Positions 17,230-63,815 of a DNA stretch of 64,000 bases are shown piece after piece. The stretch's first letter is position 1. Each line of letters opens with the position of its first letter. The translations under genes were made by a program, and so were the position numbers. The notes below the pieces were generated by a model. The model did not search any database. It saw only the letters and a program-made list of their open reading frames with translations, and was not told where the DNA came from. This DNA comes from Rhodoferax sp. OV413. Its GTDB lineage: Bacteria; Pseudomonadota; Gammaproteobacteria; Burkholderiales; Burkholderiaceae_C. Where the stretch lies: assembly GCA_945861785.1 (NCBI GenBank), contig CAMAWD010000007.1:13730-77729 (forward strand). The letters run 5' to 3'.

Positions 17230-18753
17230 ATGACCACCCCCATTGCCACCGCCACCCGTCGCCCGCTGACCCTGCGCCTGGCCGCGCTTGCTGCTGGCCT
17301 CGCATTTGCCGGAATCGCCAGCGCCCAGGTGCTGGAGATCGCCGCCGACGGTTCGCCGGCCGGGCTCGACCCGCATGTGGTGCCAGCCTTCAACACGGTG
17401 CTGATCAACAAGAACATTTATGAAGGGCTGACCGCGATCGACAAGGACCTCAAGATCGTGCCCTCGCTGGCCACCTCCTGGACCATCTCCAAGGACGGCC
17501 TGAGTTACCGCTTCAAGCTCAAGCCCGGCGTCAAGTTCCACAACGGCAAACCGATGGGCGCCGCCGACGTGGTGGCCTCGCTGTCGCGTGTACGCGACAC
17601 CAAGACCGGCTCTCCCTATGCCGCACGGCTGTCGATGGTCAAGGAGATCGTGGCCGACAAGGGTGACGTGGTCATCAACCTGAACACCGCCTCGCTGCCG
17701 CTGGTGGGCCAGCTCGAAGCCGTCGCCATCGTGCCGGCCGAGTCCCTGGCCAACCCGGCCGACCTGCAGAAGGTGCCGGTTGGCACCGGGCCGTTCAAGT
17801 TTGACAAGTGGGTGACCGATGCCCACGTCAGCCTGGTCAAGAACCCCAGCTACCACGTGGCCGGGCTGCCCAAGCTCTCCGGCCTCAAGTTCAACATCGT
17901 GCCCGAGGCCAGCACGCGCCAGGCCGGCATGGCCAGTGGCGCCTACCAGTTCTTTCCGTCGGTCGATGCAGTCACCATCAACGCGCTGGCGCGTATTCCC
18001 GGCGTGGTCACCACCAAGGTGCCAGACCTCGGTTACAGCCTGGTCGGCATGAACGTGAGCAAGCCGCCGTTCGACAACCCCAAGGTGCGCGAGGCCCTGA
18101 ACTACGCCCTGAACCGCCATGAAATCGTGCGTGGCGTGTACCTGGGTCGCGCCTCGATCGCCGCCCCGTTGCCAGCGGTGCTGACCGAGTGGGCGGTTCC
18201 GTACACCGATTTCCCGTGTTACCAGTCCAACCCCGAGAAGGCGAAGGCCCTGCTGAAGGAAGCCGGCGTGGCGATGCCACTGGCCATCACGCTCAATGTG
18301 CTGCCCAACCCGGTGGCCAAGGACACGGCCGAGATCGTGCAGGCGCAGCTGGACAAGGGTGGCTTCAAGGTCACCTTGCTGGCCCAGGAGATCGGTAAAT
18401 TCGTCGCCGACTGGCGCGCGTCGAACTTCACCGCCTTCGTGTCGCTCAACGGCGGCGGTGTGGACCCGGACGACTACTTCTACCGCACCTTCTACACCGG
18501 TTCGTCGACCAACGTCTTCAAGTACTCGAACACCGCGCTCGACAAGCAGCTCGACGCCGGCCGCGCCGCCACCAACAAGGTCGAGCGCAAGAAAATTTAC
18601 GACGATGTGCAGAAGACACTCGCCTGCCAGGGCCCGATCGCCTTCCTGGCCAACGGCGACCTGTTCACCGCCATGCGCGCCAACGTGAAGGACTTCGCCC
18701 CGATCAGCACCCGCTCGCTGGTGTACCTGCGCCAGGCGACCCTCGAGAAATAG
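17230..18753 (+). CDS. ABC transporter substrate-binding protein, family 5 (peptide/oligosaccharide)
   Basis: Signal peptide; LDP...IYEGL, PSLATSW, GVKFHNG, VGTGPFKF, PFDNPKVREAL; AAGGAG RBS. Confidence 0.95.
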   Translation: MTTPIATATRRPLTLRLAALAAGLAFAGIASAQVLEIAADGSPAGLDPHVVPAFNTVLINKNIYEGLTAIDKDLKIVPSLATSWTISKDGLSYRFKLKPGVKFHNGKPMGAADVVASLSRVRDTKTGSPYAARLSMVKEIVADKGDVVINLNTASLPLVGQLEAVAIVPAESLANPADLQKVPVGTGPFKFDKWVTDAHVSLVKNPSYHVAGLPKLSGLKFNIVPEASTRQAGMASGAYQFFPSVDAVTINALARIPGVVTTKVPDLGYSLVGMNVSKPPFDNPKVREALNYALNRHEIVRGVYLGRASIAAPLPAVLTEWAVPYTDFPCYQSNPEKAKALLKEAGVAMPLAITLNVLPNPVAKDTAEIVQAQLDKGGFKVTLLAQEIGKFVADWRASNFTAFVSLNGGGVDPDDYFYRTFYTGSSTNVFKYSNTALDKQLDAGRAATNKVERKKIYDDVQKTLACQGPIAFLANGDLFTAMRANVKDFAPISTRSLVYLRQATLEK

Positions 18754-18794
18754 GGCGTGATGGGGGAAAGGGTGGCGTTGGCCATGCAGGGCCC

Positions 18795-19751
18795 ATGCGC
18801 GGCCTGATCTTCAAGCGCCTGCTCGACCTGGCCGGCGTGTTGCTGGGCGTGTCGATCCTGGTGTTCCTGATGATCCGGCTGATCCCTGGCGATGCCGCGC
18901 AGGTGATGCTCGGCGCCAGCGGCGACGCCAGCGAAGAGCAGGTGCAGCAGCTGCGCCTGAAGCTGGGCCTGAACGACCCGGTGCCGGTGCAGTACCTGCG
19001 CTGGATCGGCAACATGGCGCAAGGCGATTTCGGCGTCAGCATCTGGACCGGCAAACCGGTGATGGACGACATCGCACAACGCATCGGTGTCACGGCCGAA
19101 CTTACCTTCCTCTCCCTGCTGCTGGCGGTGGTCTTCTCGATCCCGGCGGGGGCCCTGATGGCGTATTTCCGGGGCAGCGTGTCGGACGTGCTGATGCGCA
19201 TCATCACCATCACCGGCGTGACCATGCCGGCCTTCTGGCTCGGTGCGCTGTTGATCTTCGGCTGGGCGATCTGGTTTCCCAACTGGCAGACCCTGGGCTC
19301 GATTCCGCCTTTTTCCGAAGACCCCTGGTCGCACCTGCAGCGCATGTTCCTGCCCACGCTGACCTGCGCCCTGCCGGTGATCGCCTCGCTGGCGCGCATC
19401 ATGCGGTCGGCCATGATCGATGCGCTGGGGCAGGACTACATCCGCACGGCGCGCTCCAAGGGCCTGGACGAGTGGACGGTCACCTTCAAACACGCGCTGC
19501 GCAACTCGCTGATCCCGTTTGTCACTGCGCTGGGCATCATGGCGGGGTACCTTTTCAGCGGTGCGATCGTGGTCGAACAGGTGTATGCCATACCAGGTCT
19601 GGGGCGCCTGATGCTCGGCGCCATCGCAGACCGCAATTACCCGCTGATCCAGACTTCGATCCTGGTGGTGACCTGCGCCTTCGTGGTCATCAATGCCGTG
19701 ATCGACCTGTTGTACCGGGTGATCGACAAACGCGCGGGGGCTGCGTCATGA
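18795..19751 (+). CDS. ABC permease (OppB/DppB-like)
   Basis: IPGDAA, GDFGVSI, EAA-loop DYIRTARSKGL, IPGLGRL. Confidence 0.95.
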   Translation: MRGLIFKRLLDLAGVLLGVSILVFLMIRLIPGDAAQVMLGASGDASEEQVQQLRLKLGLNDPVPVQYLRWIGNMAQGDFGVSIWTGKPVMDDIAQRIGVTAELTFLSLLLAVVFSIPAGALMAYFRGSVSDVLMRIITITGVTMPAFWLGALLIFGWAIWFPNWQTLGSIPPFSEDPWSHLQRMFLPTLTCALPVIASLARIMRSAMIDALGQDYIRTARSKGLDEWTVTFKHALRNSLIPFVTALGIMAGYLFSGAIVVEQVYAIPGLGRLMLGAIADRNYPLIQTSILVVTCAFVVINAVIDLLYRVIDKRAGAAS

Positions 19752-60838: not shown

Positions 60839-61594
60839 TCAGTGCTGGCTGCTGAAAGCGACTGCCAGAAGGGCCTGCTGCCGTTGCCGGGTGCGCGTCT
60901 GGATGCGGCGCAGCAGGCCACGGCCGTCGACCGCGTCGATGCCATTTTCCTTGGCGAACTGGAGCGCCTCGGGGGTGTAGGTCGACGTGGTTGTGTAGGT
61001 GCCATGCACCGATTTGAAGTTGGCCATCAGGCCCATGAACTCCTTCATTTCCTGCAAACCCACCGGTGTGTTCATCCAGTGCCTGCAGCGAACGATCGCC
61101 ACCGGGCCTGGCATTTTGGCGGCGTGCAGCCAGATGTCCACGCCTTCATTCGTCCGGTGGGCTTCAGACCGGGTTTCGAAGCCAGCCCAGGCAAACCAGG
61201 TTTCGCAAACTGCGGCGAAGCGCTGCGCGTCGATGGCCTGGAACACATCCAGCGTCCAGCGCCGACCGTTGAGTTGCGCCGAAAATTGTGGTATCTCCAG
61301 CGCGCCGTCAAGGCGGCGGGCATCCGGACGGCTGCCGCTGTTTCGGCTGCCCGGGGCTGGGTGCTTCTGCTCTTGCTGGCGCGCGGTCAAGGCGCTGGCA
61401 ATTCCATGTGCCATCAGGCCCACCACCAGTGTGACGAGGGACACTGCCAGGGCGACAGTGTGGTTGATATCGAACCACCAAGTGCACAACCAGGTAACAC
61501 CGAGCACTGCCGCTGTGATTGGCAGCGCCGTCTTGGACCGGCTACCCGACGCAGGGCCTGGGTCTGCCGGGAGTTTGGTGTCGGGCTGGTTCAT
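60839..61594 (-). CDS. Membrane-anchored Mrr-like (type IV restriction endonuclease fold) protein with degenerate catalytic motif
   Basis: Two N-terminal TM segments; EGVDI...IVRCRHW..PVG..EMKEFMG..G.YTTTSTYT..A..FAKENGI..VDG pattern of the Mrr catalytic domain. Confidence 0.75.
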   Translation of the reverse strand: MNQPDTKLPADPGPASGSRSKTALPITAAVLGVTWLCTWWFDINHTVALAVSLVTLVVGLMAHGIASALTARQQEQKHPAPGSRNSGSRPDARRLDGALEIPQFSAQLNGRRWTLDVFQAIDAQRFAAVCETWFAWAGFETRSEAHRTNEGVDIWLHAAKMPGPVAIVRCRHWMNTPVGLQEMKEFMGLMANFKSVHGTYTTTSTYTPEALQFAKENGIDAVDGRGLLRRIQTRTRQRQQALLAVAFSSQH

Positions 61595-61772
61595 GGTGAG
61601 GATTCCAGGTTCGATAGAGGGTGTTTCGTTCATTGACGGTGGCCAAAGTTTAGGTAGCCCATATGACAAACCCAAGGCATTTTTCCCGCTTTTTCGGCCA
61701 AATGCAGTTGGCCTCTGTCGAATGATTGCGGCAACGCATAATTGGTCCACCTGCACTTTCGAATCGGAACCC

Positions 61773-62681
61773 ATGGACGCTCCTTTGAACTTTTCCGATG
61801 GTGTCGGCTTCGTGCGCGGCGAATATGTGCCTATCGCCGATGCCGCCATCCCCATGACCGATTGGGGTTTCCTGCGGTCTGACGCCACCTACGATGTCGT
61901 CACGGTCTGGGACGGCGCCTTTTTCCGGCTCGAAGCCCACCTCGACCGTTTTGTGCGCAGTTGCGCGCGGTGGCGGCTCGACCCGCACCTCGACCGCGGA
62001 CAGATCACCGAGATCCTCTCACGTTGTGTGCGCCTCAGCGGACTGCGTTCTTCCTACGTCGAAATGATCTGCACGCGTGGCAAGCCGCCCTGGGGCTCAC
62101 GGGATCCGCGCCTGGCGGTCAACCAGTTCTACGCCTTCGCGGTGCCATTCATCTGGCTGGCGAACGCCGAACAACGCGAGAACGGATTGCATGTCATGGT
62201 GAGCGATGTGCAGCGCATACCCCCGAGTTCGGTTGATCCGAGTGCCAAGAACTACCACTGGAACGATTTGACGATGGGGCTTCTCGGGGCGCTGGATGCG
62301 GGCGCCGACAGTGTCCTGCTGGTGGATGGCGTGGGCAACGTCGTGGAAGGCCCTGGGTTCAACGTGTTTTGCGTGATTGACGGCGCGGTCGTCACGCCTG
62401 CCGAGGGCATGCTGGAGGGCGTCTCGCGCCGGACCGTGATCGAGATGGCGGGGTCGCTGGGGCTCCCGGTTCAGGTGCGGGCTTTGCCTGCGCATCAGCT
62501 GCGCTGCGCACACGAGGTGTTCTTGTCGACATCCGGGGGTGGGGTGCTCCCAGTGACCAAGGTTGACCAAAGCGTCATCGGGAACGGACGCCCCGGGCCG
62601 GTGACACAGTTGCTGGTGCAGACGTATTGGGCGTGGCACACCGACCCGGCTTACAGCCAGCCGATCGACTATTGCGCTTGA
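61773..62681 (+). CDS. PLP fold-type IV aminotransferase, (R)-amine-transaminase-like
   Basis: DWGFLRSDATYDV, HLDRF, YVEMICTRG, catalytic Lys in AKNYHWNDL, EGPGFN, EGVSRRT. Confidence 0.9.
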   Translation: MDAPLNFSDGVGFVRGEYVPIADAAIPMTDWGFLRSDATYDVVTVWDGAFFRLEAHLDRFVRSCARWRLDPHLDRGQITEILSRCVRLSGLRSSYVEMICTRGKPPWGSRDPRLAVNQFYAFAVPFIWLANAEQRENGLHVMVSDVQRIPPSSVDPSAKNYHWNDLTMGLLGALDAGADSVLLVDGVGNVVEGPGFNVFCVIDGAVVTPAEGMLEGVSRRTVIEMAGSLGLPVQVRALPAHQLRCAHEVFLSTSGGGVLPVTKVDQSVIGNGRPGPVTQLLVQTYWAWHTDPAYSQPIDYCA

Positions 62682-62734: not shown

Positions 62735-63637
62735 TCAGTCCTCCTCGAAAAAGCCGGGTGCGCGGTCAAACAGCGATTCGAAGCCCCTGGCCGGTTCAAA
62801 GCGTTTGTTGCGGTAGGTCAGGCGGGTCGGGCCCGGGAAGACACGCCCGGGCACCGGATGCCGTTCGTCCCCCGGGTAACAGACCACCCGCAGGCCCTCA
62901 TGCTGGAATGGCTCTGGCGCAATCACCGGGGGGCTCGTCAGGCGCGCCGTTCGCAGCACCTGTTCGACGTTTCGAAAATGTGAAAGGTAAGCCAGGCTCA
63001 TGATCTGTGGCGGTGCCATTTCGATGCTGCCGCTCCAGTAGCGCGCCAATGCGGCACGCGGTGTGAGCCAGGTGCTGTCCGTGGCTTCGTGGTTGTCGTG
63101 TGCGGCCACCTGGTGCAGTGGAACAGCCGCCACGAAGAACCGCGTATCAAATCTCTTGTTGCTCACCGTCGGCACCTTGGGCGTGATCCAGCGCGACCAC
63201 GGAACCACGCTCGCTGTGTCCATGCGCAGTGCCAGTTCGGCCAGCATCTCGTCGAAGGCCATGCCCTCGCGCAGGAGCGCACCGGCGCGTGTGACGGTCG
63301 CCGGGGTTGCGCCCTGTACAAACAGGATGCCTGACTCCTCGAAGGCCTCACGGATCGCCGCCACATAAAGACTTGCGGCGGTGACCGCGTCCAGCTCCGG
63401 CTCAGCGAGTTTGCCGTGCAGTTCGTCGGGATCGCGGTCCAGGTGTTGTCGCATGTCGGGTTCGGCGTCGCGCGGGTCCACCTTGCCACCGGGGAATACG
63501 TAGGCGCCGCCCATCACATCGGACAGCCCATGGCGTTTCAGCAAAAAAACTTCGACGCCTTCGGCGGTGTCGCGCAGCATGACCACGGTGGCGGCGGCGC
63601 GCGGCGGTGTGGTGACGGTTTCAGCGTTCAATTCCAT
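62735..63637 (-). CDS. NUDIX hydrolase (NUDT19-like)
   Basis: YVFPGGKVD, AAIREAFEESG, WITP..RFDTRFF. Confidence 0.88.
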   Translation of the reverse strand: MELNAETVTTPPRAAATVVMLRDTAEGVEVFLLKRHGLSDVMGGAYVFPGGKVDPRDAEPDMRQHLDRDPDELHGKLAEPELDAVTAASLYVAAIREAFEESGILFVQGATPATVTRAGALLREGMAFDEMLAELALRMDTASVVPWSRWITPKVPTVSNKRFDTRFFVAAVPLHQVAAHDNHEATDSTWLTPRAALARYWSGSIEMAPPQIMSLAYLSHFRNVEQVLRTARLTSPPVIAPEPFQHEGLRVVCYPGDERHPVPGRVFPGPTRLTYRNKRFEPARGFESLFDRAPGFFEED

Positions 63638-63815
63638 TGCGGTGCTTTCGAGCGAAATTTGCCGAACCATTTTGGACCGGTGTTGTCGCAGAGGCTACCA
63701 GAGCGCGGGAAGCACCCGGTTCGCCAATGGGACATTGCTGCAGCGTACCCGTCGCGTTTTGGTGCATCGGGTTGGAAGTCCGGGCCCGCAAAGGCCCGCG
63801 ACCTATAATCGCGCT

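Follow-up and report, generated by a model that had tools for sequence, protein, structure and literature searches.

Whether a fold type IV transaminase gene of Rhodoferax sp. OV413 encodes an (R)-selective amine transaminase ((R)-ATA), as a sequence-only reading of the locus had proposed, or one of the better known enzymes of the same fold was the question raised by the gene at 61773-62681 (+ strand; P0001) of the window, the whole 64,000-nucleotide stretch of DNA that was analysed. (R)-ATAs are valued biocatalysts for the synthesis of chiral amines such as sitagliptin, and wild-type examples are fewer than those of (S)-selective enzymes. The proposal had set the (R)-ATAs against branched-chain amino acid aminotransferases (BCAT), D-amino acid aminotransferases (DAAT) and aminodeoxychorismate lyases (ADCL).

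The gene is complete, its reading frame running for 302 codons without a break to the stop codon, and a comparison of orthologue starts showed the ATG at 61773 to be the one held in common. An additional in-frame ATG lies 51 nt upstream at 61722 (61722-61772, + strand) and is the start of the 319-aa gene calls that several database entries carry (P0002, P0127 and others). This longer form was rejected because the 25 in-frame codons 5' of the ATG at 61773 were not conserved in the orthologues and included stop codons in many relatives; the extension is probably a gene-calling artefact. The dN/dS of the gene was 0.10-0.18 against five orthologues and the gene is therefore real, constrained and under purifying selection. 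A search of the surrounding sequence gave neither a sigma-70-like promoter nor a convincing terminator.

Fold and motif pattern of the protein

Aminotran_4 (PF01063) was the only Pfam family matched by the window protein (148 bits against a cut-off of 28.5, E 3.6e-43). In a PDB sequence search the best 27 distinct entries were all (R)-ATAs or close relatives, some of the latter deposited under generic names, with scores of 194-280 bits and E-values of 3e-82 to 5e-56, and the top match was the (R)-ATA 8zm7 (3e-82). These entries included fungal enzymes from Aspergillus terreus (4ce5, 8xiy), A. fumigatus (4chi), Nectria (4cmd), Exophiala (6fte, 6snl) and Thermomyces (6xwb), and bacterial enzymes from Shinella (6xu3), Arthrobacter KNK168 (3wwh), Mycobacterium vanbaalenii (8isc, 8ivp) and a gamma-proteobacterium (7p3t). 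The first clearly different enzymes were archaeal BCATs at about 128 bits (4e-36), and verified BCAT and DAAT structures reached at most 128 bits.

An AlphaFold2 model made with 25 homologues as input had a mean pLDDT of 95.9 and a pTM of 0.91. Foldseek ranks 1 through 48 for this model were nearly all titled as (R)-selective transaminases, with TM scores of 0.91-0.95, mostly 0.94, and identities of 35-43%, while the few relatives without selectivity in the title were 7p3t and those from M. neoaurum and Pseudonocardia. The PF01063 match and the superposition of the model on (R)-ATA structures (TM 0.94) confirmed the fold type IV PLP-enzyme architecture.

The strings DWGFLRSDATYDV, YVEMICTRG, GSRDPR and KNYHWNDL, quoted in support of the (R)-ATA proposal, were all located in the translation exactly as given, and the A. 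terreus strings cited for comparison (DQGFMHSDLTYDV, FVELIVTRG and KNLQWGDL) were present in the alignment to structure 8xiy. The motif scheme of Höhne et al., which the proposal had named as its check, requires [HR]-x4-Y-x-[VT]-x-[HSAPT] at positions 31-40 (motif 1) and [YF]-V-[EAQN] at positions 95-97 (motif 2), and it excludes BCATs by YxR at 95, D-amino acid aminotransferases by YxQ and by RxH at 107, ADCLs by K/R at 97 together with RGY at 107, and K/R at position 40 (Telzerow et al. 2020, PMC8048526). Applied to the window protein, the scheme was matched strictly: residues 35-44 (RSDATYDVVT, 61875-61904, + strand) fit motif 1 through R35, Y40, V42 and T44, and Y95-V96-E97 (62055-62063, + strand) fit motif 2 and not the Y-x-R of BCATs. 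None of the excluded signatures occurred, as positions 95-99 read YVEMI, scheme position 40 corresponds to T44, and the loop segment RGKPPWGSRDPRLAV contains neither RxH nor RGY. All seven Comamonadaceae sequences in the tree described below have this motif 1 unchanged.

The catalytic residues were likewise in place. Lys159, the Schiff-base lysine and first residue of KNYHWNDL (62247-62249, + strand), lies opposite the lysine of the A. terreus KNLQWGDL, and Glu192, first residue of EGPGFN (62346-62348, + strand), is the conserved glutamate of fold IV enzymes, which pairs with the PLP pyridine nitrogen. Arg59 (61947-61949, + strand), which we take to bind the PLP phosphate, aligned with A. terreus Arg79. 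All three residues were invariant columns in an alignment of 25 diverse relatives, and each aligned with its A. terreus counterpart.

Active-site loop and N-terminus

The active-site loop was assigned to residues 102-116 (62076-62120, + strand), which include G108-S109-R110-D111-P112-R113, with Arg110 and Arg113 as candidate carboxylate-binding residues. The Arg-containing loop after TRG to which the sequence-only reading had pointed (GSRDPR) was therefore present, but its arginine does not occupy the place of the fungal one. The position of the fungal carboxylate-binding arginine (Arg126/128, in LKGVRG) is taken by Trp107 or Gly108, according to the alignment used (8zm7/8xiy versus MvTA 8isc, the M. 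vanbaalenii transaminase). In a HMMER alignment, obtained from a PDB search with the loop segment alone in which Arthrobacter 3wwh was outside the best five matches, GSRD lay opposite the GERD of MvTA 8isc. Arg110 was also invariant in a 7-sequence alignment.

A loop arginine within G-x-R-D would thus be shared with the actinobacterial (R)-ATAs MvTA (8isc, 8ivp) and that of Arthrobacter sp. KNK168 (3wwh), the parent of the sitagliptin enzyme, in which the motif presumably reads G136-E137-R138-D139. This numbering agrees with that of Guan et al. (2015, PMC5377235), who described that the fungal arginine is not conserved in the Arthrobacter enzyme and that Arg138, on the loop 129-145, binds pyruvate in its place; the R138A change lowered kcat/Km for pyruvate about 350-fold. 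The GSRD/GERD alignment, the invariance of Arg110 and the precedent of Arg138 suggest that Arg110 is probably the carboxylate binder, with Arg113 as the alternative, as in the actinobacterial and not the fungal enzymes. In other respects the actinobacterial enzymes were more distant, with lower scores (1e-69 for MvTA and 2e-59 for Arthrobacter), identities of 36-39% and a longer N-terminus.

The window protein would act as a homodimer that holds PLP on Lys159 as the internal aldimine. The reaction would follow a ping-pong cycle of two halves. Transfer of the amino group from D-alanine or a primary amine of (R)-configuration would first yield PMP together with pyruvate or a ketone, and PMP would then pass the group on, either to pyruvate, forming D-alanine, or to a prochiral ketone, forming the (R)-amine. 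One pocket would have to accommodate hydrophobic groups and the pyruvate carboxylate alike. This dual recognition is predicted to combine a hydrophobic pocket (Arg35, Tyr40, Tyr95, Trp163) with the mobile-loop arginine of the partner subunit, Arg110 or alternatively Arg113, which would hold the carboxylate. The reaction scheme and its stereochemistry are established for the family and are predicted here for the window protein.

The fungal (R)-ATAs (A. terreus 4ce5 and 8xiy, A. fumigatus 4chi) share with the window protein the fold (TM 0.94), the catalytic Lys, Glu and Arg, and the motif classes, with HxxxxYxV and FVE in the fungal enzymes corresponding to RxxxxYxV and YVE here and with KNxxWxDL and EGxGFN in both. 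Identity to them was only 40-42%, however, and besides the loop arginine the fungal His55 is replaced by Arg35 and the small-pocket pair Thr275-Ala276 by Ser254-Gly255, as read from the alignment of the PDB search. The first conserved block of the window protein begins after just six residues, and the N-terminal helix of about 20 residues found in the fungal enzymes is therefore missing. As fungal (R)-ATAs need this helix for soluble expression, its absence counts against a reading of the window protein as an active (R)-ATA. The helix is, however, typical for the fungal members and does not define the family, and helix-less bacterial members are already known: the N-terminus varies among bacterial (R)-ATAs (Telzerow et al. 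2020, PMC8048526), and helix-less bacterial enzymes of the 2010 study were functionally expressed with low activity (per PMC8048526). The window protein may similarly show low activity on model amines. The gamma-proteobacterial 7p3t is comparable in having 302 aa, no N-terminal helix and a TMt of 0.95, with its residues 6-293 aligned in sequence with residues 11-298 here, although its identity was 35% and its score lower (5e-56). A search for an open paper on the activity of 7p3t found none.

Relatives, distribution and genomic context

The closest named protein was that of Rhodoferax (Albidiferax) ferrireducens T118 (ABD68213.1, WP_011462786.1, UniProt Q221U0; P0042), at 80% identity over the full length. 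It has 301 aa against 302, also lacks the N-terminal helix and is identical at RSDATYDVVT, YVE, PPWGSRDPR, KNYHWNDL and EGPGFN, and it differs by one residue in the loop, where Q104 replaces K104. T118 belongs to another GTDB genus, and among the genomes of the window's own genus no copy exceeded 84% identity to the T118 protein. Rhodoferax ferrireducens is among the sources of the 17 (R)-selective enzymes that Höhne et al. obtained in 2010 by a key-motif search (review PMC7228992), and we infer that ABD68213.1 is the enzyme of that set.

In a maximum-likelihood tree the window protein was sister to the T118 protein (SH-aLRT 99). The pair fell within a Comamonadaceae clade (98) with Variovorax, Caenimonas, Polaromonas, Simplicispira and Comamonas, and this was nested in an (R)-ATA-like clade of 33 rows (96), outside of which were placed the two IlvE proteins, the DAAT-like and the Lys-less paralogues of the same genome. 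The preference for an (R)-ATA over a BCAT, DAAT or ADCL was thus borne out by the PDB ranking, the fold match, the motif scheme with its exclusions and the tree. On sequence and model evidence, the product of the gene is likely to be a functional PLP enzyme of fold type IV, a homodimer belonging to the (R)-ATA subfamily, with a predicted preference for the (R)-configuration. Membership of the clade does not by itself fix the physiological substrate, since many sequences of the wider clade depart from the motifs and MvTA, a verified member, accepts the keto-sugar D-fructose (PMC10904899).

Orthologues were present in 31 of the 37 genomes of the window's genus with synteny kept. The sole closed genome sampled from the genus (G011, one contig, 100% complete) had no orthologue at 1e-20 with the window protein or at 1e-120 with the T118 protein as query, so that most but not all members of the genus carry the gene. 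In the wider family the gene was patchily distributed, with matches at E ≤ 1e-90 in only 20 of 201 sampled genomes. A search with the 7-sequence alignment recovered copies of 51-58% identity from Rubrobacter, Mesorhizobium, Burkholderia paludis and various Alphaproteobacteria. A contig labelled as a 'Synechococcus sp. UW140' MAG (L044, CALRQR020000020.1) also bore a copy with 72% identity to this Comamonadaceae gene. The contig has the appearance of betaproteobacterial sequence placed in the wrong bin, and not of a cyanobacterial source of the gene.

The neighbouring genes encode, in order, a hybrid histidine kinase, a 5'-nucleotidase, a GNAT acetyltransferase, an SRPBCC/CoxG-like protein, an Mrr_cat protein and a NUDIX-like protein, and this order was kept through the genus. 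The Mrr_cat gene (60839-61594, - strand; PF04471, 67 bits), which encodes a membrane-tethered restriction-endonuclease-like protein, is divergent from the transaminase gene and constant in position in the genus. The NUDIX-like gene (311 aa, 62735-63670, - strand) lies tail-to-tail with the transaminase gene, about 50 bp beyond its stop codon, and the convergent pair recurred at loci of Giesbergeria, Simplicispira, Acidovorax and Comamonas (L050, L052, L057, L061 and L064). The tail-to-tail arrangement makes co-transcription impossible and the pair was therefore not counted as functional linkage; it may be no more than synteny that has been kept, or it may mark a weak link in function. Clustering of the flanking ORFs of 80 related loci gave no conserved partner beyond the Comamonadaceae, and none of the neighbouring genes offered an amine pathway or a clue to the natural substrate.

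Competing identities and significance

The protein could belong to the (R)-ATA clade and nevertheless act in the cell on one particular metabolite (D-amino acids, keto-sugars and other oxo compounds are candidates), with (R)-amine turnover a weak in vitro side activity. Such a role would agree with the low activity of helix-less bacterial members on model amines (Telzerow 2020, PMC8048526), with the use of D-fructose by MvTA in the same clade (PMC10904899), and with the unusual loop PPWGSRDPR that is fixed in the examined Comamonadaceae rows, where Arg35 also stands in place of the His of several other clade members. The strong purifying selection on the gene and its patchy spread in the wider family, as expected of a specific accessory function, point the same way, although no conserved neighbour indicates such a pathway, at the pocket positions of the motif scheme the protein has the usual (R)-ATA residues and no tool result suggested another substrate; overall we consider this role unlikely. 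The missing helix, the fixed PPW-GSRDPR loop, Arg35 and strong purifying selection despite patchy spread leave a similarly small chance that the Comamonadaceae clade serves one specific physiological substrate, whether a natural (R)-amine, a D-amino compound or a keto-metabolite, and not generic amines.

The favoured assignment to the (R)-ATA subfamily was also compared with the names carried by database relatives. BCAT models were the highest-scoring NCBIfam models for the window protein, but none of the BCAT, DAAT or ADCL models reached its cut-off, the best being PRK08320 at 164 bits against 363. An identity as IlvE fails on this score, on TIGR01122 (149 bits against 245.55) and on the motif, which is YVE and not YxR. 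Identity as a D-amino acid aminotransferase fails on the absence of YxQ and RxH and on TIGR01121 (98.7 bits against 277.45), and identity as an aminodeoxychorismate lyase on Glu at position 97, the lack of RGY and ADCL model scores of at most 81 bits against cut-offs above 176. Three PDB entries deposited with a BCAT-type name (8isc, 8ivp and 8ioz) all represent MvTA, the transaminase of M. vanbaalenii, as shown by the entry titles and PMC10904899.

The genome has four further fold IV genes. A class I IlvE (485 bits) and a class II IlvE (429 bits) both scored above their NCBIfam cut-offs, and a DAAT-like paralogue on contig C23 carries the YxQ signature. The window protein is therefore not needed for the housekeeping transamination of branched-chain or D-amino acids. 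A divergent BCAT, DAAT or ADCL, as suggested by the top-ranking BCAT models and by homologues annotated 'branched-chain amino acid aminotransferase' or '2-keto-4-methylthiobutyrate aminotransferase', is highly improbable given the sub-cut-off models, the absence of YxR, YxQ, RxH and K/R97 with RGY, the gap between the verified BCAT and DAAT structures and the (R)-ATAs, the canonical genes elsewhere in the genome and the BCAT-named PDB matches that proved to be MvTA.

A fold IV paralogue outside the window (contig C19 of the same assembly, G000, 18370-19194; L022, 1354-2277, + strand) carries Asn at the position of the catalytic Lys (RLNSHSRLNL), and its PLP-binding Glu is replaced by Ser. This paralogue matched PDB 7z79 ('Aminotransferase, class 4') at E 1.4e-126, while in PDB 9j32 the same protein as 7z79 has Lys at the site. 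The paralogue is therefore a near match to a naturally Lys-less class IV protein that has already been studied structurally.

As a find, the window gene is an ordinary member of the (R)-ATA subfamily, since its product is 80% identical to a protein from a species on the 2010 discovery list, and bacterial members, a Rhodoferax one included, were part of that founding set. The subfamily was defined in 2010 with the Rhodoferax enzyme among its members and many crystal structures have followed, so the gene brings no conceptual change. It is of modest value, in that it represents a bacterial sub-clade without the N-terminal helix and with the GSRD loop, which is much less studied than the fungal enzymes. 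If the Comamonadaceae clade did serve one specific substrate, a tractable Rhodoferax or Variovorax would be a good system in which to pursue the natural role of bacterial (R)-ATAs.
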